From Candidatus Liptonbacteria bacterium (GTDB lineage: Bacteria; Patescibacteriota; Minisyncoccia; UBA6257; 2-01-FULL-56-20): a DNA stretch of 64,000 nt. The position numbers and the translations under genes are program-made. The stretch lies in the NCBI GenBank assembly GCA_023244895.1, contig JAHFLL010000001.1, forward strand, positions 404,741 through 468,740. Reading direction: 5' to 3'. This document shows, piece after piece, positions 4,376 to 51,736 of the stretch; the first letter of the stretch is position 1, and every line of letters starts with the position of its first letter. The notes below the pieces were generated by a model. It saw only the letters and a list, made by a program, of their open reading frames with translations, did not search any database and had not been told where the DNA came from.

Positions 4376-4828
4376 ATGTCTAAAAACGCGGCGTTGGGAG
4401 CGATACTCGTTTTGAGCATCTTTTACCCCACCCAAGGAGAGGTAATCCACGCGGATTTCGAACTGGATATACCTACCCATACTCAGACCACTGTCTCAAC
4501 CACCCTGGCTTCCGTACCGACGATTAAAGCTGTCTCGGCTAGAACCAGGACGGTTAAAGTCACCGCCTACACCAGCAGCCCGGAAGAAACGGATGATACT
4601 CCATTCATAACCGCTTCCGGTAAAACCGTGCGGGATGGCATAGTCGCCAGCAACTTTCTCCCCCTGGGAACCAGGGTCAAAATTCCTACCCTATTCGGCG
4701 ACAAAATCTTTGTGGTAGAAGACCGCATGCACCCCAGGATGAAAAACGTGGTGGATATTTGGATGGAAAAGAAAGAAGATGCCCTCAAATTCGGATTCAA
4801 AAATGCCGAGATAGCAATCTTGGACTAG
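4376..4828 (+). CDS. 3D-domain (MltA-like double-psi beta-barrel) protein with signal peptide
   Basis: 150 aa with an N-terminal hydrophobic leader and the C-terminal 3D-domain pattern (VAYTSS, TASG, VASN, LPLGT, DRM). Confidence 0.6.
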   Translation: MSKNAALGAILVLSIFYPTQGEVIHADFELDIPTHTQTTVSTTLASVPTIKAVSARTRTVKVTAYTSSPEETDDTPFITASGKTVRDGIVASNFLPLGTRVKIPTLFGDKIFVVEDRMHPRMKNVVDIWMEKKEDALKFGFKNAEIAILD

Positions 4829-4876
4829 AAAATAGAATTTAGTAGTTAGAAGTTAGTAGATAATGCGCGCAATAAC

Positions 4877-4906
4877 CAAAACCCCCGGAACTCCGGGGGT
4901 TTTGGT
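4877..4906. terminator. Bidirectional intrinsic terminator hairpin
   Basis: AAAACCCCCGGAACTCCGGGGGTTTTGG: a perfect GC stem flanked by A-runs and T-runs. Confidence 0.55.
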
Positions 4907-4984
4907 TGTCGGGCTGGTTGCCTGTAAATTATTTATACACGAAAGCCGGTTCCGATGCCCGTCTGGGACTTACTCGAAACCGGC

Positions 4985-5206
4985 TCACTCTCGCGAGGCC
5001 TTGTCGGTCTCGGCTGCTTGGTCCGCTTGGACTTGCTCTGCAATCTGTCTGTCCAGCCGGCGCTTACTTCGGGCATACTTTATGGCCCAGGGAGAGAGAA
5101 TCGCCCCAGCCACGAGAAATCCGACCCCGTAGATAAAGCACCTAGACCAGCTTACGGTCTCTTTCTCCAACCCCTTGATCGTGTCCGCGATCGTCTTTGC
5201 GGTCAT
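4985..5206 (-). CDS. Small single-TM membrane protein
   Basis: 73 aa with a strong SD (AGGAGGTG) 4 nt upstream of the ATG, one TM helix, a charged C-terminus, and its own hairpin terminator downstream. It sits in a GC-richer patch. Confidence 0.45.
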   Translation of the reverse strand: MTAKTIADTIKGLEKETVSWSRCFIYGVGFLVAGAILSPWAIKYARSKRRLDRQIAEQVQADQAAETDKASRE

Positions 5207-5254
5207 GGACCACCTCCTAGCTCCCTTATACTCCTATTTTATAACCTATTCAAA

Positions 5255-5893
5255 TTAGAAATCCTGCCCGTCCCCCTCTTTCATGGGACGAAAATCTATG
5301 CCCTCCGAAACCAAAAAAGTTTCTGGCACCAGATGCGCGGCTCCAAACTGCTTTACCCCACCATCGTGCACTGGAAAAGCGAACTTGGGCCTCACCTCTA
5401 AAGCATACTTCATCGCCTCGGATATCTTCATCCAAGGTCCGGCCACCGGCAAGGCCAATATTTCCGGCCTGGTTTTGGGAATATAAAAAGCGTCTCCGGG
5501 ATAGAACAATCTTCCGCCGAAGAAAAAGCCCGTATTCTGAACTTGACCAAAGTTTTGATATATCTCCGCGTGCTTATTACCCATTGCTTCCAGTTTTAAA
5601 CCCGAGACGTCTCCGGTCACGCCATCCTCCATCAATTCAAAGGATATTCCCTCTTTGGTCAAAATAACTCCTACCCCGGAATTAGTTATAACTCTTACGC
5701 CCGGGTTTTCTTTGAGCAGGATTCTTAATGAGTCCATGTGCAAGTGATCGGCATGCTCGTGCGTAATCACTATCGCATTCAGATTCCGCGCCTCAACTTG
5801 AGACAAGGAATAGCTACCGGGATCGGTCAATATTCGTACTCCGCTTTCTTCAATCAGTAACGCGCAATGTCCGTATTTAGTTACTTTCATCAA
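5255..5893 (-). CDS. MBL-fold metal-dependent hydrolase
   Basis: 212 aa with HEHADH and the other beta-lactamase-fold metal ligands. Confidence 0.7.
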   Translation of the reverse strand: MMKVTKYGHCALLIEESGVRILTDPGSYSLSQVEARNLNAIVITHEHADHLHMDSLRILLKENPGVRVITNSGVGVILTKEGISFELMEDGVTGDVSGLKLEAMGNKHAEIYQNFGQVQNTGFFFGGRLFYPGDAFYIPKTRPEILALPVAGPWMKISEAMKYALEVRPKFAFPVHDGGVKQFGAAHLVPETFLVSEGIDFRPMKEGDGQDF

Positions 5894-6071: not shown

Positions 6072-6085
6072 ATTTTTATTATAAT

Positions 6086-6709: not shown

Positions 6710-6716
6710 GTGTTTG

Positions 6717-8630: not shown

Positions 8631-9710
8631 ATGACCAAAGAAGAACTGGGAGGGAAAATATCTAATCTAAAAATTTCACGCGGGAAAAAATCGGAAGCGC
8701 TCATAGAGGGAGAAATCACGGTAGAGACCATGCGCCCCTATGCGGAGGCGGTAGTCAAAGAAGCCGGTAAAGATTTTGAGATGCCCGGCTTCCGCAAAGG
8801 CCAGGTTCCAGAGAACATATTACGCCAGAATTTAAATATGGCGCACGTCTGGTCGGATGCCGCCCATGATGCCCTGGGCGACTTATATCCCGAGATATTG
8901 GAGCTCCATGAGTTAGCGGTCATTAGTTCTCCGCGCGTGACGTTCACCAAGCTTGCTCCGGAAAATCCGCTCGGTTTTCAAATAGAAATAGGCTTAATGC
9001 CGGAATTCAAATTGCCGGACTATAAAAAAATAGGCAAAAAAGCTGCTGAAACAAAAAAAATAGCGGAAACGACCGAGGCGGAGATAGAAGAAACCATAGC
9101 CTACATCAAGAAGTCTCGAGAGAAAAGCCAGCAAGACAAAGAATTGACGGATGAAAATATTAAAGAATTCGGAGATTTCAAAAACCTGGCGGAATTCCGT
9201 GCGCGCATTAAGGAAAATCTTTTACATGAGAAAGAGATGGATGCGAGTCGCGCGATTCGGGAACAAATAGCTAAAGACTTAGCGGAAGCTACCAAGATAG
9301 AGCTTCCGGAAATAGTTGTGGAAGAAGAACTCCAAATTATGCGCAAGGATCGCGCCGCGGAACTGGACCGTCTTAAAATGTCCACCGAAGATTATTTAAA
9401 GCAGTTGAATAAAACTGCGCAGGAGCTGGAGAAGCAGGAACTGGAATACGTGGAGCGTCAGCTCAAAACGCGCCTGATACTCGGTAAGATAGCGGAAGAA
9501 GAAAAGATAGTACCGGAAGAAAAGGAAGTGGAACAAAACTCGGAATATTTAATGAGGCGCCACCCGGAAAGCGACCCGGAACAGGTCTACCATTACGTTG
9601 TGAATATGCTGACCAACGAGCTGGTCTTGGAGCTACTGGAAGGCAAGAAAAAAGACACGCAAGCTCAAGAGAAGACGGGAAAACCGAAAGACAAGCCGGA
9701 GGAGAAATAA
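8631..9710 (+). CDS. tig: Trigger factor (short form)
   Basis: 359 aa. The N-terminal GFRKGQVP motif is diagnostic of the trigger-factor ribosome-binding domain. The C-terminus is long and helical. An extended -10 (TATATAAT) lies upstream. Confidence 0.65.
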   Translation: MTKEELGGKISNLKISRGKKSEALIEGEITVETMRPYAEAVVKEAGKDFEMPGFRKGQVPENILRQNLNMAHVWSDAAHDALGDLYPEILELHELAVISSPRVTFTKLAPENPLGFQIEIGLMPEFKLPDYKKIGKKAAETKKIAETTEAEIEETIAYIKKSREKSQQDKELTDENIKEFGDFKNLAEFRARIKENLLHEKEMDASRAIREQIAKDLAEATKIELPEIVVEEELQIMRKDRAAELDRLKMSTEDYLKQLNKTAQELEKQELEYVERQLKTRLILGKIAEEEKIVPEEKEVEQNSEYLMRRHPESDPEQVYHYVVNMLTNELVLELLEGKKKDTQAQEKTGKPKDKPEEK

Positions 9711-31648: not shown

Positions 31649-32404
31649 CTACCCAGTGGTCTTTTTGAGTTCTGGAACAGTCTCTTCGAGCAACGCCTTG
31701 ATTTGATCTGAGTCAAGTGAGGACAATGCGGAATATCCACCCCTGAGATTAAGCCTGCGCATTATCAGACGTACTTTTGCCTCCTTGCTATTCGAAAATA
31801 ATGTTGGATTTCCCACTACAAATTCAAGCACGGCGAATCGTATGGTCTCATTTCTTCCTTGGGCACCAGGCAATAGATGCGTGGTGTAGTCCAACATGGA
31901 AAATACCTCTCGGGTAAGGACGTAGGGATCTTTTGCGTCCTTCGTCTTCGTGAGAGAAACAACCCACCAGAGCCTTGCGATGTCGTTGTTCATCAACGAT
32001 GCGGGACTCATCGGATCGACAAACCAATGATCGAGAATATATTTACCTCGCTTACTTTCCTTCTGGGCGGATACATCCGTCCTCTTTTTCATATAGTCGA
32101 AAAAGTCCACGTGGGTAAGGTATGTCCAAAAGCGCTCATCCGATGCGTCTTCGGGGCTCAGCGCGCTGTACGCTTCGAAAAGTCGTATCGCGGCCTCCGC
32201 AGAATCCCTACTGCCCCCGCCCGGCGGGTTGGGAAATAATATTTTGGACATGGGAACCTTCAGAGACGACTGCACCGTATCGATATCTTCGACGGAGAAA
32301 CTTTCTCCTAAATATTTTTTTACGCCTTTCCCTGTACGCAAATCATCCTTCATTCTAACGAGGGCTGCGGTCGTAAATATCGGTCTGGTGTTTTTTTCTG
32401 GCAT
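31649..32404 (-). CDS. Hypothetical protein, 4th gene of GHKL-ATPase operon
   Basis: 251 aa. Its start lies 1 nt after the upstream stop. No recognisable family (motifs RFWTYLTHV and ILDHWF). Confidence 0.6.
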   Translation of the reverse strand: MPEKNTRPIFTTAALVRMKDDLRTGKGVKKYLGESFSVEDIDTVQSSLKVPMSKILFPNPPGGGSRDSAEAAIRLFEAYSALSPEDASDERFWTYLTHVDFFDYMKKRTDVSAQKESKRGKYILDHWFVDPMSPASLMNNDIARLWWVVSLTKTKDAKDPYVLTREVFSMLDYTTHLLPGAQGRNETIRFAVLEFVVGNPTLFSNSKEAKVRLIMRRLNLRGGYSALSSLDSDQIKALLEETVPELKKTTG

Positions 32405-32405
32405 A

Positions 32406-33257
32406 TCAGGAGAATGTTATTTTATCGACGATATTGTTGAGATCGTTCAGCGAATTGGTGAGGGGGTAGTCGAATATCGCTTGCACCAGCTCGGGGATAT
32501 TTTCCACCGAGACGCCTATGCGGCGCATTCGATCCTCTTTCATCAGGTCGGTCAGTTTCTTGTGCCACTTCCTGTGGTTGTGCGTGGCACTCCTATCTTC
32601 CGACAAAAACTCGCTCATCACCCAAAGCATAGCCGGATATACGTACAGCGATATGAATACTCGTTTCAAATCTTCGCTCTTTTTAATCTTCTTCATATTT
32701 TCGTAATCCTCTTCGGGTAACTTTATGAGGATAGGGTCCGACCCCAATTCGTACTTAACATCTTTCCCTGCATGCTTGTAGAACATGAAAAATGCGCCTT
32801 CCGATCCCGGCGTCTCCCAATCTTTGGTGACCTCGAAAGAATCGCTGCCGCTGTATCCGAGTATTTCACCCTTATGAACCGTGAAAGTTTGCCCATCGAA
32901 GAAATCTGTGGTGTAGGCATTTTTGTATCGCGGTATATCCTGTTTTGCGATAATCAAACACGTCGCCACAACCGTATCTCTGAGATATTTCGAATCTATC
33001 CTTATTTGCCCCGAACCGTCTCCAGGAAGCTCGAAGCCCATTCGATACATCGTCGAGGAACAGGATACGTCGACAAAGAAAACCGCCTTGCCGTCAGTTA
33101 TTAATTTCTCCATAGCTTCGTTATGGAGGACCTGAGAAACGGTCAAGATCGTCTCTTTGGCGATAACGAGTCCAATATGGGTCTCGAACCTACCGACGAT
33201 TTCGCCTCCGTCCTTGCGTAGTATTGGATGCGGCAACGATACAATGTCGAGTTTCAT
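32406..33257 (-). CDS. Hypothetical protein, 3rd gene of operon (possible PD-(D/E)xK-like motif GD...IDSK)
   Basis: 283 aa. ATGA overlap with the GHKL gene. The weak PD-x9-DxK pattern is speculative. Confidence 0.6.
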   Translation of the reverse strand: MKLDIVSLPHPILRKDGGEIVGRFETHIGLVIAKETILTVSQVLHNEAMEKLITDGKAVFFVDVSCSSTMYRMGFELPGDGSGQIRIDSKYLRDTVVATCLIIAKQDIPRYKNAYTTDFFDGQTFTVHKGEILGYSGSDSFEVTKDWETPGSEGAFFMFYKHAGKDVKYELGSDPILIKLPEEDYENMKKIKKSEDLKRVFISLYVYPAMLWVMSEFLSEDRSATHNHRKWHKKLTDLMKEDRMRRIGVSVENIPELVQAIFDYPLTNSLNDLNNIVDKITFS

Positions 33258-35155: not shown

Positions 35156-35157
35156 TT

Positions 35158-35388
35158 TTATAGTTCAAACTCCTTCTCTTGTTTTTCTTCACCCCGAAAA
35201 CGAGCTTCCGCCTTCGCAAGCGCGTCTTTCATCGCCCCGAAAATCTTCCTTAATTGGTCTGGGGTGTAGTCGTAAAGCCCACGATTATGGAGATTGGAAA
35301 CGATCCGGATATCGTCGAGGACTTTCCTGACCCTTTTCTCCGCCAGCCGCTTGAACCGTTCCGCCTTTTGTTCGTTATTTTTTGACAT
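35158..35388 (-). CDS. Small helical basic protein, 1st gene of operon (possible DNA-binding/regulator)
   Basis: 76 aa. Its stop lies 2 nt before the GHKL ATG. A TTGACA-17-TATACT promoter sits upstream. Confidence 0.45.
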   Translation of the reverse strand: MSKNNEQKAERFKRLAEKRVRKVLDDIRIVSNLHNRGLYDYTPDQLRKIFGAMKDALAKAEARFRGEEKQEKEFEL

Positions 35389-35412
35389 AGTATTTTAGGA
35401 AGTATTTCCTGA

Positions 35413-35441
35413 AGTATATTCTATAGTATTTTCTATGTCAA
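35413..35441 (-). promoter_or_regulatory. Sigma70-like promoter for the 4-gene operon (TTGACA-17-TATACT on minus strand)
   Basis: Read directly from the sequence. It lies just downstream of a small GC hairpin that terminates vsr. Confidence 0.4.
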
Positions 35442-35446
35442 GTCTC

Positions 35447-35869
35447 TTATCTTCGGGCCTCTTCGGGGCCTAAACACCTCTTCATTTTGGTCTCTACGCG
35501 ATCCGGATGCTTCTTTATGACCGATCCCCAGAATCGGAGCACCTTATAACCGCGTTTGCGTAGTTCCCTGATCTGACGGCTGTCCCTTTTTATATTCGCA
35601 GCAATTTTTGATTTCCAAAAATCGGGAATTCGTGCGCCCCATTTTTTAAGCCCTCTTCCATGCCAAAAATCGCCATCCGCGAAGATGGCGATTTTATTTT
35701 TCACAAAGACAATGTCGGGTTTTCCCGGGAGACTGGCTACGTTTTTTCTGTAGCGTTCAATTTTCCAAAAAGGCCTGACTATTCTGCCCAATAGTTTTTC
35801 GATGTCGGTATTTTTTGTACCGACTTTCTTCATCAATACGCTACGCGCTTCTTTGGTTAATTTATCCAT
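35447..35869 (-). CDS. vsr: Very-short-patch-repair endonuclease
   Basis: Motif FADGDFWHGR (compare the FVDGCFWHGH Vsr signature) with conserved Asp/His. The start is probably internal MDKLT. Confidence 0.75.
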   Translation of the reverse strand: MDKLTKEARSVLMKKVGTKNTDIEKLLGRIVRPFWKIERYRKNVASLPGKPDIVFVKNKIAIFADGDFWHGRGLKKWGARIPDFWKSKIAANIKRDSRQIRELRKRGYKVLRFWGSVIKKHPDRVETKMKRCLGPEEARR

Positions 35870-36389
35870 GCTCCTCGACGCGTGGATAAATAATGCGTGC
35901 CTCTGCGACAAGAGCTTTAGTAACTGTTATATTCCATCCCCGCATAGTCTTGTGCCACTTCTTCAGTCTGAAAAATTGTTCCCATGTGATCTCTAAAATT
36001 TTCTTTGGCTGCAGATTCTGATCTATTAAAACAATAACGACGTACTCGAATTTCTTTTCCGAGGGATGCTCGATTTCGGGATCACCGAGTCCGTAAAAAA
36101 CACTCGTCAAACTGTTCGGCTCGGTAATTGTCTTTATGCTGTACCTGTCTCCCTTCCGACTCAATGCATCAACATTCTGGGTTCCTTCCGGAGCTGCTTG
36201 GAGCTTAGGCAACCCGGGAATTTTGTTATATGTTTCGATGGCCAAAAACTCGCCACGTTCCCCGGTGATGTTCTTGGTCCGTATTAACCCTCGCTTTTTC
36301 AAAAGAGTAATCGCAAACGCGTAGACGCTCCACACGACGTCATCACTGGCAGCCTCTATCTTCTCAAATATCTCAAATTCCTTTCCCAT
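35862..36389 (-). CDS. Hypothetical protein between dcm and vsr (R-M associated)
   Basis: 175 aa, translationally coupled to its neighbours. No recognised family. Confidence 0.45.
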   Translation of the reverse strand: MGKEFEIFEKIEAASDDVVWSVYAFAITLLKKRGLIRTKNITGERGEFLAIETYNKIPGLPKLQAAPEGTQNVDALSRKGDRYSIKTITEPNSLTSVFYGLGDPEIEHPSEKKFEYVVIVLIDQNLQPKKILEITWEQFFRLKKWHKTMRGWNITVTKALVAEARIIYPRVEEHG

Positions 36390-36397
36390 GAGTAAAT

Positions 36398-37384
36398 CTA
36401 CAGAAATTTTATTATTTCACGGCCAATTTCCCGTATCACGTTTATCGCCACGCTATTTCCGAGCTGCTTGAGCATCTGCGTATGTGTAACCGTTGTTGGA
36501 AAATCGAAATCCGCCGGAAATCCCATCATCGTTTTCATCTCACCCACAGTCAAGACATGTTTTTCCCCTCCAACAATATATGTATCCCAACTCCTCTTGT
36601 CCACAAACCATTCTCCGTTTCTTTTTTTGTATACTGGCGACCCGCGCCCACCAACTCGAATGGTTCTCCCTATCTTGTTCGGCCATTTCTTATCTTTAAA
36701 GAATTTACATAAAGTCGTGCCTCCTGGACTAGTTGGCTTTGGGAATTTAAATTCCTTGGCGCCAGGCGCTCCTTTTTTAAAGGCCACTAAATAAAATCTG
36801 GGTCGAGCGGTCGGCAGACCGAAATCGCTGGCATTCAGAAAGTTCCAGGAATCGTCTCGCTCCTCGTTTACGTAATATCCAGCCCTGTCCAGTTTTTCCA
36901 AGATAATTTGGAACGTATGCTTATTGTCGTGATTAACAATGTTCCTCACGTTCTCCAGAAAAATAACCTTCGGCTGCTTGGCCAAAATTATTCTCTCTAT
37001 GTCACCGAATAGGGTGCCTCTGTCATCATCAAATCCCCGTTTTTGTCCGATACGACTGAACGGTTGGCATGGGAAACCAGCACACAATACATCGAATTTT
37101 GGTATAACCCTTTTTATATTTTTATCCCAAATTGTTTTTGATTGCCCAGTATCAGTAAGGGTTATGTCCTTTATGCTTTTCCAAAAATAGGGTTCGCGCT
37201 TCTTGCTTTTAAACAATTCGGGGTTGGTCTTACGAAAATTATGCTCGTATGTCTTCCGTGCATTCTCGTCGAATTCATTTACGAACACGCATTCACCGCC
37301 GAGCTCCTGTAGCGCGAGATGGAATCCACCGATTCCAGCGAAAAGGTCAATAAATGTAAACTTTGGCCTCCTTTTCTTTTTCAT
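36398..37384 (-). CDS. dcm: DNA (cytosine-5)-methyltransferase
   Basis: Motif I FIDLFAGIGG, motif IV GFPCQPFS, ENV, and the C-terminal target-recognition and motif IX/X pattern. Confidence 0.85.
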   Translation of the reverse strand: MKKKRRPKFTFIDLFAGIGGFHLALQELGGECVFVNEFDENARKTYEHNFRKTNPELFKSKKREPYFWKSIKDITLTDTGQSKTIWDKNIKRVIPKFDVLCAGFPCQPFSRIGQKRGFDDDRGTLFGDIERIILAKQPKVIFLENVRNIVNHDNKHTFQIILEKLDRAGYYVNEERDDSWNFLNASDFGLPTARPRFYLVAFKKGAPGAKEFKFPKPTSPGGTTLCKFFKDKKWPNKIGRTIRVGGRGSPVYKKRNGEWFVDKRSWDTYIVGGEKHVLTVGEMKTMMGFPADFDFPTTVTHTQMLKQLGNSVAINVIREIGREIIKFL

Positions 37385-38475: not shown

Positions 38476-38610
38476 TAAAATCTCTTATGTTTTTTATGAC
38501 CTACCCCTTCTTCCAATCCCTGATGGTGAATCCGCCGGGGGGAAGTTTTGGGCTCTTATTTACCTTAAATAATATGCCCCTCTTTTGGCTTTAGCAAGAA
38601 TAAAATTCAA

Positions 38611-38694
38611 GGCAGTAAGTAGATAGTAGCAAGTAGTAGGTAGAAGGCGGAGTATATAAAAAAGAACCAGCCCCGGACGCGCGTCGCGCCGGGG
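38611..38694. repeat. Composite repeat copy 1: C-depleted GTAG/TAGAAG tract + 48-bp terminator module (GCGGAGTATATAA..CCCCGGACGCGCGTCGCGCCGGGG)
   Basis: 47 of 48 bp match 39974..40021. On the minus strand this is a hairpin plus T-run terminating the PNP gene. Confidence 0.55.
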
Positions 38695-38726
38695 CCGGAA
38701 TAGAATCCGTCTGACTTCTCCGCCAC

Positions 38727-39614
38727 TTACGCCGCTTCGCTCCGGCGGTAGAGCTCGAAGAACCTGAGGAAGATCTTGGCGACACGCCGGCGGACCGGCG
38801 GGCTCTTCAAGACCCTCACGACCTCCTCGTGATTGGTCGCGTTTGTGCCATCCTTCTTGGTTGTATTGGACACGATGGAAACGGCGAGCGTGCGCAGACC
38901 GCGATTGGTCGCGACGATCACTTCGGGCGCGGTAGACATGCCCATCGCGTCCCCGCCCAGAATCCGAATCGCACGGACCTCCGCGGGGGTCTCGTAGGTC
39001 CGTCCGGTCTGGACGAAGAGCACGCCCCTGTGGACACGCCGAGACTCTCGCACGATTGCGGCCGCGCGGTGGAACATACTGCGCAGCTTCAGGTCGTACG
39101 TGCCGACCTTGGGGTACATGGGCTGGAAGTACCAGTTGCTCCCAAAGTCCAAATGCGGTCCGAGAAGCGGGTTGGGCATCGCGAGAGCGATGTGGTCCGT
39201 GACCACCATCAGATCTCCGACCTTGTAGGACATGTTCGCCGCGCCGACTGCGTTGGTCGACATGTAGATCTGGACACCGAGCTCCGCCATCACCTGGACG
39301 GCGAGGGTAACCCACCACATCGCCCGCGGGTCGGGAGCGGCGTTGTAGTAGTGCTCCCGGCCGGACAAGGCGAAAACGGGCACGCCAGCGATGGTCCCGT
39401 AGATCAGCTCGCCCTTGTGCCCCGGAGCGCTCACGCCCGGGAAACCGGGAATCAGCCGATACGGGATCACAACCTCCTTCACCATCTGCTCGGCGAGGTC
39501 GTCCATCCCCGAGCCTAGCGTGAGCGAAATCTTGGGCATGGGGCCATTCACCCTGCTCCGGATGTAGGCTGCCGCCGCCCGAACCTTGGCCACGTAGACT
39601 TTCGGCGAGATCAT
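38727..39614 (-). CDS. Purine nucleoside phosphorylase (PunA/MTAP family), GC-rich foreign cassette
   Basis: 295 aa with GSGMDDLAE, SGREHYY and MGMSTAPEVIVA...NHEEV. A strong SD (GGGAGG) lies upstream. The gene is markedly GC-richer than the genome. Confidence 0.8.
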   Translation of the reverse strand: MISPKVYVAKVRAAAAYIRSRVNGPMPKISLTLGSGMDDLAEQMVKEVVIPYRLIPGFPGVSAPGHKGELIYGTIAGVPVFALSGREHYYNAAPDPRAMWWVTLAVQVMAELGVQIYMSTNAVGAANMSYKVGDLMVVTDHIALAMPNPLLGPHLDFGSNWYFQPMYPKVGTYDLKLRSMFHRAAAIVRESRRVHRGVLFVQTGRTYETPAEVRAIRILGGDAMGMSTAPEVIVATNRGLRTLAVSIVSNTTKKDGTNATNHEEVVRVLKSPPVRRRVAKIFLRFFELYRRSEAA

Positions 39615-39837
39615 CTCTCAGTCCCTCCCTGTTATGCCTCACGGAATAATATCAAAACCGTTTCGGATAGCTCCTCGCGGCTCATCACATCATTATGCAG
39701 TCAGGTATAAAAATCAATGTAGTAAGCGAAAGTAGAGGCTAGTAGCTAGAAGGTAGTAGGTAGCGAGCAAAATGAACCTAAACGGGAAAACACTGCTCAT
39801 CTCTCACTAACCCTATCTCCCCCAACTCACACCCCCG

Positions 39838-40021
39838 TGGTGGGTACTATACTACGGTATAGCGGAGGATAGTAGGTAGAATATATAAGGTAGAAGTTGG
39901 AAGATGGGAAGTGGTAGGTAAAAAGCGAGGGGTAGAAGTTAGAAGATAGAAGTTGGAAGGTAGAAAGTAGAATGCGGAGTATATAAGAAAGAACCAGCCC
40001 CGGACGCGCGTCGCGCCGGGG
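39838..40021. repeat. Composite repeat copy 2: 23-bp palindromic motif + C-depleted purine tract + 48-bp terminator module
   Basis: GGTACTATACTACGGTATAGCGG, then about 100 nt with almost no C (GGTAGAAGTTAGAAGATAGAAG...), then the terminator module for the lipoprotein gene. Confidence 0.55.
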
Positions 40022-40041
40022 CGGTCAATCTCATCATCCTA

Positions 40042-40746
40042 CTAGTCATAGAAGCGCGTCACCGGGGAGTAGTGCTCCCGGATGAAGGCGTTGAAGCAGG
40101 GACCTTCCTTCTGGCCACAGGCAAGCCAGCCTCTATACATAGTGGCACCGACCGGGTCCAGGTTGCGGCCCGCCCTCACTAGAGCAGAGACGGTATAGCG
40201 GCAGGTCCTGTCCCATGCGGTGACCTCGGAGGCGATCAGCGCCTCCTTACCGTCCACGTTGTCACAGCCACTCGCAAGATGCTCCAGCTCGTGGAGAAGA
40301 CCGATCACGATCGAGACTTCGAAGGTCTGCGGCGTGACCTTTCCGCTTCGATAGAACTGTAGCTGGGCCGGTACGAAGATCCGGAGCACGGGATTGCCAC
40401 CCCGAGCATCGCAACCGGCCAAGACGTCTCTGGAGCGGTTATTGAAGGACGTGCTGGCCTCGATGGCGAACACCTTGCCGTAGCGCTCAGCGCTCCGCCT
40501 GGAGAGCTCCAGATAACGGTTGTTGATGTCCGAAACCGAATACCTGGCCCGGAGCACCTCCTCCATCACGGTCCGGTTGAAGTGGGAGTCCCAGAACGCG
40601 TGGAGCTCCTCGTCCGAGAACTTGCGCTCCACCCTCTCCGCCACGGTGGGGGTGGGTTCATTCTTCTTGTCTATGGGGCAACCAAGAACCAGAAGAATGG
40701 TCGTCAGAAACAGGATGCGCGCCGTTCTTCCGCGTCGCATGGACAC
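40042..40746 (-). CDS. Lipoprotein with HExxH zinc-metallopeptidase motif, GC-rich cassette
   Basis: Signal peptide with lipobox LVLGC, HELEH motif, and an SD (AGGGGAGG) before a GTG/ATG start. Confidence 0.55.
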   Translation of the reverse strand: MSMRRGRTARILFLTTILLVLGCPIDKKNEPTPTVAERVERKFSDEELHAFWDSHFNRTVMEEVLRARYSVSDINNRYLELSRRSAERYGKVFAIEASTSFNNRSRDVLAGCDARGGNPVLRIFVPAQLQFYRSGKVTPQTFEVSIVIGLLHELEHLASGCDNVDGKEALIASEVTAWDRTCRYTVSALVRAGRNLDPVGATMYRGWLACGQKEGPCFNAFIREHYSPVTRFYD

Positions 40747-40895
40747 AGGTTGCCTCCCCTATTGTTTTGCCGTCATTGCGGCGATGGTAAACGAACCGAC
40801 CATATAATACAATTTTTCATGTAAAACACAAGATAACCCTCTTTCATTAATTATCTAGCCCCTCACGTCCCCAGCTTGACTAGGACATAGCACCA

Positions 40896-41064
40896 GGTAA
40901 CAAGTAGTGGCTAGTAATTAGTATTGAATAACGGTGAGTTAGAAGACGGTGGTTGGTAGTTAGAACGTGGAAAGTGGAACGTAGAACTACTGCCACTACT
41001 ACAATCATAATTCCGCTTACTCATCCATCAACCCCCACAGTGGGCACTATACTACGGTATAGTT
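40896..41064. repeat. Third copy of purine-rich tract + 23-bp palindromic motif (GTGGGCACTATACTACGGTATAG)
   Basis: Same orientation as the copy at 39842, and upstream of the plus-strand gene 41153. Confidence 0.45.
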
Positions 41065-41152
41065 ATCCACAGATAGGCATTGACGCACAGACTGGACGGC
41101 TATAGTTTTAAATCAGCCCCCGAAACGTTAACCTCTTTCAAGGAGCAGTGTC

Positions 41153-41392
41153 ATGGGTAGCAACAACACGCCACGGTACGAGGAAGACACTCGGCAGGTC
41201 TCCTCGGCCACCAGTGCGGCGGGCATGGCAGCGGCAGTCATGATTGCCGGGCCGTTCGCAGCGCTGTTCGTCGATCCGAACGACAAGTGGGAGCACACCA
41301 TCACCGATACCCAGACTGGTAACCAGGTTGTGGGTACCGGGAGCACCCCGCAAGAAGCTCGCGACGAAGCCCTGGGCAACATGCGTCGCTAA
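41153..41392 (+). CDS. Small hypothetical protein (79 aa), GC-rich
   Basis: AAGGAG sits 7 nt upstream of the ATG. No recognised family. Confidence 0.45.
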   Translation: MGSNNTPRYEEDTRQVSSATSAAGMAAAVMIAGPFAALFVDPNDKWEHTITDTQTGNQVVGTGSTPQEARDEALGNMRR

Positions 41393-41564
41393 TCGTTTAG
41401 CGAACATCCAGCCCGGATATAAAAAGAGGTACAGACACAAAAGTAAGGCAAGAAAGGGGCAAAATAGCCCGCCGCAATTAGCGGAAAATCCACAAGGCGC
41501 ATATTACGCGCGAGCCCCGGCTATTGCTAACGCACCCGGGGTTTTTGAATATTAAAATCAACAC

Positions 41565-41612
41565 AAAAAGCGAGACCCCGGACGCAGCACGATGCTGGCC
41601 GGGGCCCGAACT
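41565..41612 (-). terminator. GC hairpin terminator related to the CCCCGG..CCGGGG module
   Basis: Minus-strand GGGCCCCGGCCAGCA..TGCTGCGTCCGGGG followed by a T-rich run, located after the zinc-ribbon gene. Confidence 0.35.
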
Positions 41613-41631
41613 CTTCTCCACGCACAGAACG

Positions 41632-41895
41632 CTATTGCGGAGGCCAGATGGACTCGTCCTCGCAGACGGGACACTCGTAGCGATCTCCTCGCCTGGCCGA
41701 CTCTGGCAACTGCTTGTCGCAATTGGGGCAGACCGGTACCAAAACAGTGTCCTCGTTGGCGGGCAGTCGGCAACATTGCGGGCAGTAGCCCGCAACCTTG
41801 CCGTTTCGATCTTCTACCCTCTCCAGCAACCCTCCGCACGCCTTGTGCGCGGACCACCACTCTGTCGGCTTCAAGGCGATCGCCAGAACGCTCAT
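41632..41895 (-). CDS. Zinc-ribbon mini-protein (CPQCC...CPNC...CPVC)
   Basis: 87 aa with a strong SD (GGGAGGAG) and three CxxC pairs. Confidence 0.5.
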   Translation of the reverse strand: MSVLAIALKPTEWWSAHKACGGLLERVEDRNGKVAGYCPQCCRLPANEDTVLVPVCPNCDKQLPESARRGDRYECPVCEDESIWPPQ

Positions 41896-41908
41896 CCGAT
41901 TCTCCTCC

Positions 41909-42118
41909 CTAGCACCTGGTGCAGGATGTCACGGTGCAGTAGGTCTTGGATTCCGGTCCGCCGCTTCTGCGAGCGCTGTCGTTGCAGCCCTCGCAGACCA
42001 GGGCGTTTCCACCCCGGACCAGACCCGCGCCATTGCAGTGCGAGCACTTCTCGCCCTTCTTCCCGCCGCTCCCTCGGCAGAAGGAGCAATTCATGACCGG
42101 GACGTCTCCGAGCGCCAT
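41909..42118 (-). CDS. DnaJ-type zinc-finger mini-protein (CxxCxGxG repeats)
   Basis: Start taken at MALGDV with the SD GGGGGA. Motifs CSFCRGSGG, CSHCNGAG and CEGCN. Confidence 0.45.
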   Translation of the reverse strand: MALGDVPVMNCSFCRGSGGKKGEKCSHCNGAGLVRGGNALVCEGCNDSARRSGGPESKTYCTVTSCTRC

Positions 42119-42200
42119 GATGTCCCCCAATCCAGACACGGGATGTGTCTGCTGGAGATAGATTTTGATACAACCAGAAACAAAGTCAACGCCCAAGCGG

Positions 42201-48317: not shown

Positions 48318-48410
48318 CGCTCTCCTCCCCTGGCTACCACTTTCTACTTTGCACATTCCACCTTCTGTCTTCTAACTTCTACCCGCTACTTACTACCTAC
48401 TGTCCTATCA
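48318..48410. repeat. G-depleted (CTAC/CTTCTA) tract in divergent promoter region
   Basis: Plus strand reads CCACTTTCTACTTTGCACATTCCACCTTCTGTCTTCTAACTTCTACCCGCTACTTACTACCTACTG. Same family as the other GTAG tracts. Confidence 0.4.
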
Positions 48411-48425
48411 TGTATAATGCTTTTC

Positions 48426-49193
48426 ATGCGCTTAAAGCTTATATCTCTCAATCTCTGGCAGGGCGGGAAGCTCTGGCAAGAGATCGTTGATTTCTTGGAG
48501 AGAGAAAAGCCCGATATTTTAGCCCTGCAAGAGGTCTATGAATCCAGAGAGCCCCATCCGGAACAGAGATATAGATCCATGACAAAACTACAGGAAGCCC
48601 TGCCTTATCTATCTTTCTATCAATTCGCCCCCACCCTCACGGGACTGTCCCTAGATGGTGTGCCATACAGAGAAGGCAATGCCGTCTTTAGCAAGTTCGA
48701 GCTGAAACAAAGGGGTGTTCATTTCTTTGATGTGCCTTATGGAGAATTTGATTATGCAGGCACGGCGTTTGATCCCGCCCGTGCACCCCGCAACATTCAA
48801 CACGTCGTAGCGGATATAAACGGAACCGATCTGAATATTTTTAATCTACAGGGTATTTGGGGCAAAAATGAGCTAGATAACGAGAGAAGGATGAATATGG
48901 GGAAAACCGTTGCCAAACTTGTAGCCGGCAGAGAACATGCTCTTCTCTGTGGGGACTTTAATGTGGATATTAAAACTCGAAGCATCGCCCAAATAGAGGA
49001 GGCTGGACTCGTAAACATATTTAAAGGCAAGATTGAGTCCAGCATGAATACTCTGCGCCGGCCACAAGAGATATTCGGTAAGATAACTCCAGACACGATT
49101 TTTATAAGCCCCGACCTGAAACTAATTTCCGCGGATTGCCCCAAGGTGGACATATCCGATCATTTGCCCCAGATAATTACCTTTGAAATTTAG
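48426..49193 (+). CDS. Endonuclease/exonuclease/phosphatase (EEP) family protein
   Basis: Start at MRLKLISLNLWQGG with TATAAT just upstream. EEP motifs (ILALQEV, CGDFN, SDHLP). Confidence 0.65.
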   Translation: MRLKLISLNLWQGGKLWQEIVDFLEREKPDILALQEVYESREPHPEQRYRSMTKLQEALPYLSFYQFAPTLTGLSLDGVPYREGNAVFSKFELKQRGVHFFDVPYGEFDYAGTAFDPARAPRNIQHVVADINGTDLNIFNLQGIWGKNELDNERRMNMGKTVAKLVAGREHALLCGDFNVDIKTRSIAQIEEAGLVNIFKGKIESSMNTLRRPQEIFGKITPDTIFISPDLKLISADCPKVDISDHLPQIITFEI

Positions 49194-49206
49194 ACCGGGC
49201 CTTGAA

Positions 49207-49240
49207 AACAAAACACCCCGCAAAGCGGGGTGTTTTGTTT
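49207..49240. terminator. Bidirectional intrinsic terminator
   Basis: AAAACACCCCGCAAAGCGGGGTGTTTTGTTT. Confidence 0.55.
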
Positions 49241-49253
49241 CTACCAATTTTAC

Positions 49254-49556
49254 TTAGTAGCTGGAGCCTTGACCACGACCACCGAATTCACGGCGGGGGG
49301 CACGAGCCTCCAAAGGACGGGCCTCGTTGACGGTTAAGCGGCGACCTTCGAAATCCTTACCATTCCACATTTCGATTGCCTTCGCAGCGTCAGCGTCATT
49401 GACCATCTCGACGAAACCAAACCCACGGGAGCGGTTGGTCATCTTGTCCATGATTATGGACGCGGATGCAACCTCTCCAGCCTGGGCAAAAGCCTCGCGC
49501 AAGCTGTCCTCGGTGGTGCTGTAGGGCAAACCACCAATATATAGCTTTGTAGCCAT
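49254..49556 (-). CDS. RRM-domain RNA-binding protein
   Basis: 100 aa with RNP-2 (LYIGGL) and RNP-1 (RGFGFVEM) and an RGG tail. Confidence 0.8.
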   Translation of the reverse strand: MATKLYIGGLPYSTTEDSLREAFAQAGEVASASIIMDKMTNRSRGFGFVEMVNDADAAKAIEMWNGKDFEGRRLTVNEARPLEARAPRREFGGRGQGSSY

Positions 49557-49722
49557 TTTGTGCTGTATTTTTAATCTTCGTGTAAGTCGACTTGTTTATT
49601 ACTTTCTCTCTGCTGATTCACACGAAGACCAACAAACGGCTCCGCGAACTGCTTGTGAGAAGAATTCTTACAGCTCTCGTATTATACCATTTGGCTTAAA
49701 TTAATGCAAATACCCTATTTAG

Positions 49723-51531
49723 CTATATTTTACCTAGCTTCCTAGCCAACGCCTCAGCTTCACTAAGCAGTCTTTCTATCTCATTTAAACCCTCGTGCCA
49801 GAAGTCCGCGCGAGTAATATCTACGCCCAAATCCGCGAAGATATCCTGGGGAGACTTAGAAATACCCGCAGAAAGAAACCTTTTCACGGCTTCAATCCTG
49901 GTCTTGTCTTTACGCACTTGAGCCTGCAAAGATTTTGATATCAGGAGCCCGGTCGCATAGGAATAAACATAAAAGAAGCTGCGAATATGGCTCCAGTAGA
50001 CCCACCAATTTTCGGAACCGGGAGATTGCTCCACCGCCTCGCCCATATAGTCTGCCATATGTTTCTGGAAAATCTGCCCGATCTCAATATGGGATAAATA
50101 TCCTTTTTCTCGAAAAGTTTTGTGAAGTTCTTGCTCAAAACGGTAACAGGCCGCCTGGCGGAAGATACTGGAGACATCATCATTCAACTTAGTGAGCATC
50201 ATGGCCAGGCGCAACTCCTCATCCGCTTCTTTCTCTATACGTTCCAGCACGAAGTCTTCCATAAAAGTACTAGCCACTTCCGCGCTGGCGGTAGAAGTCC
50301 CGAAATAGACTCCTTTCTGCTCCGGGCGCATCAGTTCGTTGTTAATCGCGTGCCCCATCTCATGCGCTAAGGTCATTACGTCGTTTAGGCGGTCAGTGTG
50401 ATTTAAAAGCACATATGTCGGCTGGCTGACTAGAAGATGGGAGCAAAAGGCGCCATTGTGCTTGCCCTTCCCCGGGAAAACATCTATCTGACCATTCTCT
50501 AGTAACCGTTCTAATATTTCGGGAAAGGCCGGATCCAGTCCGCTGAAGACATCTTTAACCAACCCCACCGCCTCCCCAAAAGTATATTTTTTATCCGCCT
50601 CGCCATAAGGCACGTTGCGTTCGTGGTATGCGAGCTTAGGCACACCCATTAATTTCGCCCGTAAGGCGTAATAATCACGGGAGATTTGAAAATGGTTCCG
50701 AATGGTTTCTATCGCCACATCTACCACCACGGTAGAGATGTCGTCGTGCACGTGACGCAGAGTATCCGGGCGCTCCACTCCGCGTAATTCATCATCGCTC
50801 TTCTTATTATCTAAGACCGCGTTTATCTCCGCCTCCGCCACATCCAGATGTTTTACAAAAATATTATTCAACGCCTGCGCCGCGGAGTCGCGTACCGGTT
50901 TTTCAATATTGTTCGCGAGGCTGGTTAGCTCCGAAAAATTTGCCTTCTTTCTGTTTCCCTCTTTGTCTACTAAAACCTCAGCTTCTTCTTTGGAAATCAA
51001 GCCAGACACCATCCTGACCCACTGGCCGTAAGCGGGCGAGGATTTGAAGTCCATGATTCTCTCTTCCGGTTCGGAAAGCAAATATTTGCCTTCCGCAAAC
51101 AATCTTTCCAAAAAATGCCTAAAATATGAAAGCTCCGACGCCGTGAGCATGCGCGCTTGCGCGTCCGGCTCTATCTTGGAAATCCTTAGCTCAAAAAAGC
51201 GCACCTCATCCGCGATTTTGCGCGCGAATTCTTCCGCCTGGTTTAGTTTCGCCTTAAGCTCCGAAGAATTCTGGTCCTGCTCCGCCCTTAACCAAAAATA
51301 ATAAGCTTCATCCCCGCCTTGTCCGCAAGAATTTTGCCAAGCTTCATATTCCGTAAGCGCTTGCGCTAGCGCCTTCGGGTCAGAGAGGTAGTCTTCGCGA
51401 TTTTTCCAAGCCTGCACAAATCCAGCCGTTTTGGCCTGTATCTCTTTACGCTTAGCTTCTTTCGCCGGGTCATCATCCGACACAAGGAGCGGGCTCAGGT
51501 CCCAGGTGGTTTTTATGTCTTTTTCTGTCAT
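49723..51531 (-). CDS. pepF: Oligoendopeptidase F (M3B)
   Basis: 602 aa with HEMGHAINNE (HExxH) and the downstream Glu. Confidence 0.8.
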   Translation of the reverse strand: MTEKDIKTTWDLSPLLVSDDDPAKEAKRKEIQAKTAGFVQAWKNREDYLSDPKALAQALTEYEAWQNSCGQGGDEAYYFWLRAEQDQNSSELKAKLNQAEEFARKIADEVRFFELRISKIEPDAQARMLTASELSYFRHFLERLFAEGKYLLSEPEERIMDFKSSPAYGQWVRMVSGLISKEEAEVLVDKEGNRKKANFSELTSLANNIEKPVRDSAAQALNNIFVKHLDVAEAEINAVLDNKKSDDELRGVERPDTLRHVHDDISTVVVDVAIETIRNHFQISRDYYALRAKLMGVPKLAYHERNVPYGEADKKYTFGEAVGLVKDVFSGLDPAFPEILERLLENGQIDVFPGKGKHNGAFCSHLLVSQPTYVLLNHTDRLNDVMTLAHEMGHAINNELMRPEQKGVYFGTSTASAEVASTFMEDFVLERIEKEADEELRLAMMLTKLNDDVSSIFRQAACYRFEQELHKTFREKGYLSHIEIGQIFQKHMADYMGEAVEQSPGSENWWVYWSHIRSFFYVYSYATGLLISKSLQAQVRKDKTRIEAVKRFLSAGISKSPQDIFADLGVDITRADFWHEGLNEIERLLSEAEALARKLGKI

Positions 51532-51565
51532 CTTTATTTTATATTTACCTACTACATACTACTTT

Positions 51566-51736
51566 CTACTTACTGTTCAACACTTTCTGTTCTACTCCAC
51601 ACCAGGGACAAAACCAGGCATTGCGCTTGGGCGCGTCAGCTATGGACCACCATTTATTACACTTCCCGCAACGAAAATGAGAAATCTGCTCCAATGAAAT
51701 TCTGCCCTGTAGTTTCTTCTTGTCTTCTGTTTTCAT
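51566..51736 (-). CDS. Possible small zinc-ribbon protein (CGKCNKWW...CPWCG)
   Basis: Internal Met start. The 3' end runs into the purine-rich tract upstream of pepF. Weak call. Confidence 0.25.
   Translation of the reverse strand: MKTEDKKKLQGRISLEQISHFRCGKCNKWWSIADAPKRNAWFCPWCGVEQKVLNSK

Follow-up and report, generated by a model that had tools for sequence, protein, structure and literature searches.

Heptamer tracts in the window

The window analysed here is a 64-kb stretch of an 840-kb genome, and our census of tracts covers this stretch. The host is a small groundwater CPR bacterium (Candidatus Paceibacterota), represented by a contig of 840,672 bp. Scattered across the intergenic DNA of the window is a family of C-poor tracts that are degenerate tandem arrays of a heptamer unit, GTAGAAG or GTAGTAG. 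The unit comprises a TAGNAG core (TAGAAG or TAGTAG) and one variable base, which is seldom C. A sequence-only reading had listed nine such tracts as a dispersed, strand-asymmetric, intergenic family outside the standard annotated classes. That description is correct, and eight of the nine tracts were confirmed in sequence and position; the tandem heptamer structure had been overlooked.

Five of the eight tracts are on the plus strand. The first, at 4826–4865, holds five units and is followed by a hairpin at 4867–4914; its opening TAG doubles as the stop codon of a 150-aa gene (4376–4828). The tract at 38611–38646 is flanked by the hairpin behind the PNP gene and by a promoter-like sequence, TTGCTA-17-TATTAT, of a 336-aa gene. 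A further tract lies at 39719–39768. The longest, at 39864–39974, consists of blocks of 62 and 48 nt and has a single C in its 111 nt. The most decayed copy, at 40896–40990, is 149 nt upstream of a 234-aa gene in the CT direction. On the minus strand, the tract at 31341–31400, GA-rich on that strand and G-free on the plus strand, is 78 nt upstream of a DUF1905 gene. The tract at 48318–48410 occupies the divergent spacer between the PfkB and Exo_endo_phos genes and adjoins TGTATAAT (48411–48418, plus strand), and that at 51547–51600 lies upstream of pepF, 15 nt from its start codon. The ninth listed tract, 4208–4225, is at most a weak candidate: it lies in a 26-nt C-free run (4202–4227, plus strand) that contains one GTAGAAG and precedes a small hairpin and T-run. 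No heptamer array was detected there, and the candidate is indistinguishable from chance.

Every tract shows a period of 7, and the window contains no other heptamer family. TRF reported period 7 (or 14) at 4839–4859, 31343–31395, 38617–38645, 39740–39763, 39933–39965, 40961–40987 and 51546–51574. A search for at least three phased TAGNAG units yielded 11 matches in the window versus 0.4 in null sequences, and 10 of these were located within the listed tracts; for at least four units, the numbers were six and zero, respectively.

The purine-rich strands of the eight tracts together contain 206 A, 192 G, 116 T and 25 C. C thus makes up 4.6%, as compared to ∼25% in the remaining intergenic DNA. 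The earlier statement that the tracts consist almost only of G, A and T is looser for 48318–48410 (seven G) and 40896–40990 (eight C). Relative to a second-order Markov null, C-free runs of at least 40 nt were in excess (four versus 0.15 expected), as were G-free runs (six versus 1.9). Shorter base-free runs (at least 22 nt) are frequent, including in genes, so composition alone is insufficient to define the family.

The tracts resemble one another at 75–90%. Individual arrays are 3–15 units long with 69–85% matches, far more degenerate than classic SSRs, which counts against an origin as slippage repeats. C accounts for 4 of 48 variants in the core and for 4 of 46 bases at the seventh position; this avoidance, judged against a naive null, hints at a compositional constraint on the tracts, a further point against slippage repeats. 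Unit order is common to different loci beyond what is seen in unit-shuffled arrays, with ∼0.3% of shuffles reaching the observed score. It thus appears that the tracts spread by duplication or recombination.

Position and orientation relative to genes

All eight tract loci are intergenic, although intergenic DNA represents 10.7% of the window (naive P ∼2 × 10⁻⁸). The GA strand of each tract is interrupted by stop codons in every reading frame. Relative to genes, the tracts point both ways. According to the sequence-only reading, most tracts immediately precede a gene read in the same direction. In the GA direction, this is true of only three of the eight (DUF1905, PfkB and pepF). Four tracts point at a gene when read in the CT direction (the 336-aa gene, PNP, the 234-aa gene and Exo), and tract 4826, which begins at the stop codon of the upstream gene, lies in the spacer to a convergent gene. 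Orientation is effectively random, as would be the case for simple compositional noise, but coding DNA is free of tracts. The tracts are therefore not such noise.

Seven of the eight tracts are in spacers that contain at least one gene start, which could be taken to favour a role as DNA-level promoter elements (UP-like) or as operator arrays for a transcription factor of the downstream gene. The sequences adjoining tracts 38611–38646 and 48318–48410 also fit such a role. A parallel might be drawn with regulator-binding heptad arrays such as those of the Vibrio cholerae ctx promoter, whose TTTTGAT repeats reportedly recruit transcriptional activators (bioRxiv 10.1101/2021.05.14.444153). However, neither the orientation of the tracts nor their distance to gene starts (15 to 162 nt) is consistent, one tract, in the spacer between two convergent genes, begins at a stop codon, and their composition is G-rich (36% G) rather than A/T-rich. 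Consensus promoter scans detected nothing beside most tracts. The TATATAA and TATAAT sequences noted earlier after 38646 and 39974 are not −10 boxes: they belong to the A/T run flanking a GC hairpin behind two minus-strand genes. The first of these terminator-like modules, a GC hairpin with a T-run at 38647–38700 (minus strand), is 3′ of the PNP gene and contains the TATATAA; a second copy (39975–40025, minus strand) is 3′ of the 234-aa gene. Moreover, a conserved PfkB-proximal A/T-rich block and a TTGCAA-17-TAGTAT sequence lie downstream of tract 48318–48410, and both are retained in a relative, L175, whose orthologous spacer has no tract but conserved flanks, including the −10 and −35-like promoter sequences. 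A function as promoter elements or operators, and with it the UP-like elements suggested earlier, is thus very improbable.

Comparison with related genomes

The relatives L172/L173 and L177/L178 carry the same heptamer unit family. A period of 7 is more frequent than any other among the tandem repeats in 167 kb of CPR loci; the units differ in other CPR genomes. In the orthologous Exo/PfkB spacer, L177 and L178 have the same tract as the 93-nt tract of the window with a single gap of exactly 21 nt, or three units. The pepF tract has no counterpart at the orthologous site of L177, L178 or L175. Conservation in relatives had been proposed as a check; tract positions are not conserved. The contigs L181 and L001/L174, from two samples, are 100% identical to the window and accordingly display no polymorphism at this level, which counts against slippage repeats.

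Tracts also coincide with breaks in synteny. The PNP cassette is homologous to L172 (88%) as far as 39717 on one side and 38723 on the other. The former position is 2 nt from tract 39719–39768. The latter is 4 nt past the PNP stop codon, ahead of the hairpin-and-tract module at 38611–38700.

Possible roles of the tracts in RNA

The window encodes a canonical RRM_1 protein (49254–49556) between two tracts, and the order pepF-RRM-Exo-PfkB is syntenic in relatives. The tracts might accordingly be RNA-level landing pads for a single-RRM RNA-binding protein such as this one. The RNA, read in the GA direction, would be unstructured and C-free, with tandem (G)UAG(A/U)AG motifs that would bind several copies of the protein, which might be a chaperone, stabiliser or translational modulator. 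C avoidance among the variants would fit such binding. Cyanobacteria carry RRM proteins. Six of 10 cross-phylum matches to a 21-mer are from Bacteroidota and CPR, or seven when one cyanobacterium is included. RRM proteins occur in Bacteroidota (bioRxiv 10.1101/2021.04.27.441718) and, as the window gene illustrates, in CPR. RbpB, an RRM-1 protein from Bacteroides, recognised a threefold repeat of GUAGGAUA, which is made up of G, U and A, with a KD of 5.1 μM but showed no binding to a C/U-rich motif (bioRxiv 10.1101/2021.04.27.441718). In vivo, the protein associates with single-stranded stretches ahead of terminator hairpins (PMC11697453). Both properties favour the landing-pad reading, and hairpins likewise come after tracts 4826, 38611 and 39864, as well as after the weak candidate at 4202. 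By contrast, only two of the eight tracts (4826 and 51547) are clearly within a sense transcript in the GA direction; for several, transcription would yield the CU strand. L175 and L179 encode RRM proteins but have no such tracts within 10–15 kb, and the lack of positional conservation among relatives is also unfavourable. Overall, we regard binding by an RRM protein as unlikely.

The opposite strand raises a different role. Sites of the rut type are C-rich and G-poor, and the CT strand contains ∼36% C and 4.6% G over 36–111 nt. The tracts could thus be polar, rut-like insulators: Rho would load onto CT-strand RNA, which is unstructured and rich in C with hardly any G, and read-through would be halted, while GA-strand RNA would be invisible to Rho. 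At 4826, 38611 and 39864, the CT-strand tract directly follows a hairpin behind a co-directional minus-strand gene, as such a role would predict. However, the CT strand of 31341, 48318 and 51547 is antisense to the local genes, and orthologous sites in relatives lack tracts. Rho loading is therefore a highly unlikely function.

Palindrome H and associated modules

Three of the heptamer tracts adjoin a palindrome, CTATAC-N4-GTATAG, designated H, with a G-rich, C-free or C-poor arm on the opposite side. In module A, tract 31341–31400 is the left arm, H (ACTATAC-TTGA-GTATAGT, 31402–31419) is the centre, and the other arm (31423–31566, plus strand) is G-rich and C-poor, has periods of 6, 8 and 15, but not 7, and contains a G-quadruplex-prone run at 31458–31510. 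Module B has a C-free arm, G-rich on the minus strand (39796–39836), and H as ACTATAC-TACG-GTATAGC (39846–39863). In module C, the arm, also G-rich on the minus strand, is at 40993–41039 and H, ACTATAC-TACG-GTATAGT, at 41046–41063. The arm across H is non-periodic yet also C-free or C-poor; single-unit slippage leaves it unexplained, which counts against that mechanism.

These modules bear on the earlier suggestion that the tracts are remnants of a small mobile element. The tracts could be fragments of a non-autonomous mobile or dispersed module of the MITE/REP/BIME type, in which CT-heptamers, H and the G-rich arm effectively form a long imperfect inverted repeat; a trans-acting enzyme would copy the module between intergenic sites, or gene cassettes would carry it. 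Palindrome H occurs three times in the window versus 0.5 expected, and the polarity of the arms is always the same. A 76-nt module recurs in L172 with 85.5% identity in a different gene neighbourhood, where H extends to a 12-bp stem. Its conservation, about equal to that of coding DNA, suggests constraint or recent movement and would count against slippage repeats. The two GC-rich genes are preceded by the same arrangement of H, a G-rich arm and heptamers and are followed by the same hairpin, and the H modules occupy a region that differs between relatives. The common unit order and the recurrence of the 76-nt module thus lend the suggestion partial support. On the other hand, no transposase, integrase or RAYT-like gene was present among the scanned window proteins or among the tabulated genes of overlapping contigs, and neither target-site duplications nor defined termini were seen. 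H is missing from five of the eight tracts and, among 1.2 Mb of loci, is limited to the host genome and L172/L173. Finally, the modules did not fold clearly better than shuffled sequences (z of −1.7 to +0.9). A mobile origin is therefore doubtful.

Origin of the tracts and comparison with known systems

On balance, we lean towards the tracts being lineage-specific, degenerate heptanucleotide tandem repeats of the STRR or long simple-sequence repeat (LSSR) type, which has previously been described in cyanobacteria and further bacterial groups. Of the long-SSR classes in prokaryotes, the heptanucleotide one is reported to be the most abundant; its members lie mostly between genes and differ in length from one close relative to the next (PMC4679880; PMC4692102). 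Arrays would lengthen and shorten in whole 7-nt units by slipped-strand mispairing and decay by point mutation between such events. Duplication, recombination or gene conversion might copy them from one intergenic site to another, in many cases where gene cassettes of a variable region join. The arrays, presumably near-neutral, would be tolerated solely outside genes because the purine-rich strand stops in three frames and 7-nt indels shift the frame. A sequence-specific regulatory role is unnecessary to explain the tracts; if they have an effect, it is probably to push promoters and terminators apart as unstructured spacers.

Several known systems share features with the tracts. REP/BIME elements are likewise small, dispersed and extragenic, with a palindrome, GTAG-containing flanks and positions between genes and beside terminators. 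However, no RAYT-type gene was seen in the present case, and the element is mostly a direct tandem repeat rather than a palindrome. The three repeats of GUAGGAUA bound by RbpB are similarly tandem, G/U/A-only and contain GUAG, and the window encodes a single-RRM protein; by contrast, that motif has a length of 8 nt and comes from in vitro work (bioRxiv 10.1101/2021.04.27.441718), and the orientation of the present tracts does not fit a purely RNA-level role.

Among heptamer repeats, the GGGAATC and GGGGA(T/C)T repeats of Xanthomonas and Nostoc are also intergenic, vary in length and sequence among close relatives and, like the present arrays, sometimes occur as inverted pairs (PMC4692102). The present unit does not form G-quadruplexes; the G4-prone sequence is in the separate, non-heptameric arm beside H. 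The TAACTGA direct repeats of marine Beggiatoaceae, cyanobacteria and Bacteroidetes also constitute one heptamer family with numerous intergenic sets, often near the start codons of genes that lack a clear Shine-Dalgarno site, and share a patchy, cross-phylum distribution (PMC4679880). In both families, stop codons inside the unit together with the 7-nt period place stops in all frames. TAACTGA sets mostly have a single orientation immediately upstream of start codons (PMC4679880), whereas the present tracts are mixed and only the pepF tract abuts a start codon.

A narrow literature search found no report of such a heptamer family in CPR. As compared to the cyanobacterial STRRs, or heptanucleotide long SSRs (Mrazek et al. 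2007, as described in PMC4679880 and PMC4692102), the present arrays are short (3–15 units), strongly degenerate, have one free position that avoids C, and occur in a CPR bacterium. The two nevertheless have in common a 7-nt unit, intergenic location, one unit family per genome, many dispersed arrays and length differences among relatives.

Composition and heptamer periodicity

C-depleted tracts were found where the sequence-only reading had placed them. In eight tracts (4826-4865, 31341-31400 (-), 38611-38646, 39719-39768, 39864-39974, 40896-40990, 48318-48410 (-) and 51547-51600 (-)), the pooled C content of the purine-rich (GA) strand was 4.6%, compared with ~25% in the remaining intergenic DNA, and its G content was 36%. 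A further listed tract, 4208-4225, contained a single GTAGAAG within a 26-nt run and was indistinguishable from chance. Of C-free runs 40 nt or longer, the window had four, against 0.15 expected; of G-free runs of this length it had six, against 1.9 expected. Base-free runs of 22-35 nt were frequent, and several long G-free runs lay inside genes. Composition alone is therefore insufficient to define the tract family.

All eight tracts are degenerate tandem heptamers, a feature that had been overlooked. The unit is TAGAAG or TAGTAG followed by one variable base, and TRF reported a period of 7 or 14 in seven of the eight tracts, at one place in each. A detector of phased TAGNAG units gave 11 matches of three or more units in the window, as opposed to 0.4 in second-order Markov sequences, and six matches of four or more units, as opposed to none; ten of the 11 fell inside the tracts. 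The units matched each other at 72-85%, short of the near-perfect identity of simple-sequence repeats (SSRs), and the tracts are thus not clean SSRs but arrays that have decayed or are rich in variants. The variant bases avoided C relative to a null of 1/3 or 1/4, which is only suggestive because this null ignores transition bias.

Pairs of tracts were 75-90% alike. Local-alignment scores between tracts exceeded those of unit-shuffled arrays; ~0.3% of shuffles attained the observed top score or the sum of the five highest. These data indicate that the order of units is common to the tracts, and hence that copying occurred, not only independent slippage of one unit. The most economical reading, slightly more probable than not, is that the tracts are slippage-prone heptanucleotide repeats of one lineage-specific family, shaped by whole-unit resizing, mutational decay, copying among intergenic sites and exclusion from genes. 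Such arrays would lengthen and shorten in whole 7-nt units, decay through mutation and be copied from one intergenic site to another.

Genomic setting and orientation

A protein that clusters with the BipA of the window is labelled Candidatus Paceibacterota, and among named organisms Liptonbacteria have the nearest relatives of the PfkB kinase. [quoted passage not shown] The GA strand of every tract carried stop codons in all three frames; these, together with frame-shifting indels, would account for the exclusion from genes. The flanking genes encode a 150-aa protein and an MBL-fold hydrolase at 4.8 kb; DUF1905 and DUF6339 proteins at 31.3 kb; a 336-aa protein, a PNP_UDP_1 phosphorylase (PNP), a 234-aa secreted-looking protein and small zinc-ribbon ORFs at 38.5-42.2 kb; PfkB and Exo_endo_phos (Exo) at 48.3 kb; and a 181-aa protein and oligopeptidase F (pepF) at 51.6 kb. 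No tRNA or tmRNA was present in the window, and the idea of a tRNA or integration site was rejected.

Tract orientation relative to genes follows no rule. Most tracts had been thought to lie just upstream of a gene in their reading direction. The GA direction faced a gene start in only three of eight cases, namely DUF1905 (78 nt), PfkB (70 nt) and pepF (15 nt), and the CT direction did so in four (the 336-aa gene, PNP, the 234-aa gene and Exo). The stop codon of the 150-aa gene forms the start of the tract at 4826, which ends at a hairpin and occupies a convergent spacer. In spacers between co-directional genes, the sense strand was GA in two and CT in three.

UP elements are A/T-rich blocks at about -40 to -60, directly 5' of the -35 hexamer and in fixed orientation. 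The tracts, with 36% G, mixed orientation and variable distances to genes, do not resemble them. The TATATAA noted after tracts proved to be the A/T run of GC hairpin modules at 38647-38700 and 39975-40025 and not a -10 box, and promoter consensus scans around the tracts yielded two adjacent sites only.

Comparison with relatives and within the population

The gene order pepF-RRM-Exo-PfkB-AdoHcyase was kept in contigs of relatives whose PfkB orthologues share 78% identity. In the divergent Exo/PfkB spacer, the window has a 93-nt tract. Two of these contigs, L177 and L178, have the same tract minus one 21-nt gap, corresponding to three units, and a third, L175, has none. All of them conserve both flanks: TATAAT, 7 nt and ATG on the Exo side, and AAATTGCAAATT ... 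TA[G/C]TATTA on the PfkB side. All three contigs lack the pepF tract at the orthologous site. Retention of the promoter-like flanks by the tract-less orthologue argues, with composition, position and orientation, against one proposal of the sequence-only reading, that the tracts are UP-like promoter elements, and equally against an operator array; we give these readings almost no credence. Its other proposals, a binding array and a mobile remnant, keep some probability.

In the window, the Exo-side flank at 48411-48428 (+) comprises TGTATAAT, then 7 nt, then the ATG of Exo_endo_phos, a geometry kept in L177 and L175 that suggests a leaderless mRNA for this gene. The DUF1905 and pepF starts resemble this arrangement. 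The leaderless and extended -10 readings draw on sequence and on conservation in relatives rather than on the promoter-scan tool.

A GC-rich island (38560-42200; 52-57% GC versus 47% elsewhere in the window) lies between the genes for an ABC-F ATPase and the 336-aa protein and encodes PNP, the 234-aa protein and the small zinc-ribbon ORFs; at this place the related contig L172 carries FA_desaturase, DUF3160, Memo and other genes. Between the window and L172/L173, the ABC-F and PNP genes share 86% and 88% nucleotide identity, respectively, and the intervening genes differ. The PNP homology with L172 ends at 39717, 2 nt from tract 39719-39768; its other end, at 38723, is 4 nt beyond the PNP stop codon and precedes the hairpin-and-tract module 38611-38700. 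The heptamer family also occurs in other spacers of L172 and in L177. In this variable gene region the tracts occupy the joints, and heptamer arrays may build up at such places where a region recombines and is supplied horizontally.

Two sequencing runs of one population gave contigs identical to the window across one tract, and no within-population variation was seen among them at that tract. One contig of this population, L174, stops at 39993, in the repeated hairpin module beside a tract.

The palindrome H and the hairpin modules

Three tracts are parts of a larger module around a palindrome, H (CTATAC-N4-GTATAG), which gave six strand-matches in the window against 0.5 expected. H occurs at 31402-31419, 39846-39863 and 41046-41063. 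Over these copies and that of the related contig L172, its stem stays the same and its loop varies (TTGA, TACG, CATA). Heptamers in the CT sense flank one side of H in two of the three window copies. The opposite side is a G-rich, C-free, non-heptameric arm in all three, with constant polarity. Both strands facing outward from H are therefore C-poor. Within the G-rich arm beside the first H, G4-G6 blocks at 31458-31510 (+) (TGGGGGGTGGGAG...GGGGTGGGGGTGGGGGTGGG) have clear G-quadruplex potential. On both strands, each half of H resembles a -10 element (TATAGT/TATACT), and from its sequence H could be a divergent promoter or operator. At 31.3-31.6 kb, the H module bounds a restriction-modification or defence-like block (31649-37384) that encodes a DUF6339 protein, two large proteins without Pfam hits, a Vsr mismatch endonuclease and a C-5 cytosine methylase.

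One layout is common to two GC-rich genes of the minus strand: H, G-rich arm, heptamers, Shine-Dalgarno leader, gene, GC hairpin with T-run, and heptamers. The two hairpin modules are identical in sequence and the heptamers adjoining them have diverged. The hairpin, CCAGCCCCGGACGCGCGTCGCGCCGGGGC plus a T-run, lies at 38647-38700 and 39975-40025, after two different GC-rich genes, and at 3885-3928 of L172, after a DUF2103 gene; judged by its sequence, it is a dispersed terminator-like module.

L172 also contains an H module (H at 8985-9000), 85.5% identical over 76 nt and set in a different gene context, in which H forms the tip of a 12-bp stem. At 8795-8945 of L172, 5' of this module, the motif TTAGGTTAATT(A/C)C occurs three times between heptamer blocks. 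The conserved, relocated copy and the cassette-like layout would suit a small mobile module centred on H. We nevertheless regard this as unlikely; no mobile-element enzyme was found among the scanned window proteins, nor were termini or target duplications. Across 1.2 Mb of fetched loci, searches by nhmmer profile and regular expression recovered H modules only in this genome and in L172/L173.

RNA-level readings

Folds of the tracts, H modules and putative 5' leaders on both strands had z-scores of -1.7 to +1.5 relative to dinucleotide shuffles, and a structured-RNA reading was dropped. In an Rfam scan of the window at gathering score, an AdoCbl riboswitch was the sole pass and no family was found at the tracts; permissive scans of the tract regions returned chance-level matches only. 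The riboswitch (54658-54801 (+); 51.2 bits, gathering score 50) lies immediately 5' of the gene for a protein of 625 aa that carries DUF4430 and prenyltransferase-like repeats; a cobalamin-related function of this protein, at the surface or in uptake, is probable.

Rho loads at rut sites, unstructured stretches of RNA of at least 60 nt that are C-rich and G-poor, are transcribed in the sense direction 3' of a gene and give rise to Rho-dependent 3' ends. The CT strand of the tracts, with ~36% C and 4.6% G and folding no better than shuffles, has such a composition; three of the eight tracts come after hairpins and, in the CT sense, after a co-directional gene. The five remaining tracts do not fit this pattern and only four of eight reach 60 nt. 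A polar Rho-loading site is very unlikely.

A canonical single-RRM protein of 100 aa is encoded at 49254-49556 (-), with RNP2 LYIGGL, RNP1 RGFGFVEM and a Gly/Arg-rich tail; its gene is syntenic in relatives, between pepF and Exo_endo_phos. In Bacteroides, RbpB, which has a single RRM-1 domain, bound three repeats of GUAGGAUA in vitro and not a C/U motif (bioRxiv 10.1101/2021.04.27.441718), and in vivo it binds single-stranded stretches preceding terminator hairpins (PMC11697453). By analogy, the tracts might be landing pads for the RRM protein. They resemble the threefold G/U/A motif GUAGGAUA of this homologue from another phylum, the binding of RbpB ahead of terminator hairpins is in keeping with the idea, and the C-avoidance of the variant bases together with the C-free, non-periodic arm suggests a compositional constraint. 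Against it stand the mixed orientation of the tracts and the relatives that have RRM genes and lack tracts, and we think it improbable. A broader analogy, that C-free GUAG-type heptamer arrays serve as multivalent platforms for the small single-RRM proteins of Patescibacteriota (CPR), Bacteroidota and cyanobacteria, seems more doubtful still. If it held, intergenic heptamers like the cyanobacterial STRR and the RRM proteins of these phyla would belong to one post-transcriptional system, and H with its two outward C-free arms would be a divergent transcription unit producing such RNAs.

Wider distribution and comparison with known systems

Ten species-representative genomes carry the 21-mer GGTAGAAGTTAGWAGAYAGAA. 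Three are Bacteroidota and three CPR; the others are a Clostridia MAG, Dialister, a cyanobacterium and a Calditrichaceae MAG. Every match sits within a longer heptamer array, and all lie between long ORFs except that in locus L002, which a long ORF overlaps. In several cases a stop codon coincides with the start of the array or lies a few bases from it, or a hairpin follows the array. At least 120 metagenome contigs contained (TAGAAGN)x4, mostly as perfect single-unit microsatellites and some probably eukaryotic; the unit is widespread, but these matches say little about the tract family of the window. Their seventh base was often C, and avoidance of C is thus not universal. In 167 kb of CPR loci, 7 was the commonest tandem-repeat period, with other units in other genomes. 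A Levybacteria locus (L003) carries the heptamer family of the window as inverted pairs, a GA array followed by a CT array (2247-2354 and 5038-5168), which fill the spacer between co-directional genes and would form long hairpins.

The window offers a compact example of heptamer repeats in a reduced CPR genome, with a single unit family whose arrays have clearly been gained, lost and resized by 21 nt where orthologous sites are compared. A literature search found no report of a heptamer family of this kind in CPR bacteria. If the repeats are only products of slippage, the practical consequence is that annotators should not call them promoters and that assemblies break there; if they are landing pads for a protein, a small genome such as this one is well suited for testing it.

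REP/BIME elements with RAYT combine an imperfect palindrome, a conserved GTAG and a Y1 transposase-like gene in the genome. In the window, the palindrome H and GTAG-rich flanks are present, and no Y1_Tnp match was found among the scanned window proteins. HutP-type arrays have UAG repeats 4 nt apart in a terminator/antiterminator leader, plus the HutP protein. The UAG-N4 spacing of the tracts agrees with this, and neither a HutP-family match among the scanned window proteins nor a leader context at the tracts was evident.

Intergenic heptamer repeats have been noted for decades in cyanobacteria, Beggiatoaceae, Xanthomonas and Bacteroidetes, with no agreed function. Heptanucleotide repeats are reported to be the most abundant class of long SSR in prokaryotes, for which polymerase slippage has been proposed (PMC4679880; PMC4692102; bioRxiv 10.1101/2022.06.06.494920). 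Known families include the cyanobacterial STRR, TAACTGA of Beggiatoaceae, cyanobacteria and Bacteroidetes, and GGGAATC of Xanthomonas (PMC4679880; PMC4692102); they are intergenic, variable between close relatives and of unsettled function (PMC4679880; PMC4692102; bioRxiv 10.1101/2022.06.06.494920). Like the STRR and the long SSRs, the tracts consist of head-to-tail 7-nt units, form dispersed, mostly intergenic arrays of one unit (eight loci in 64 kb) and, at one locus, differ in length between relatives by whole units.
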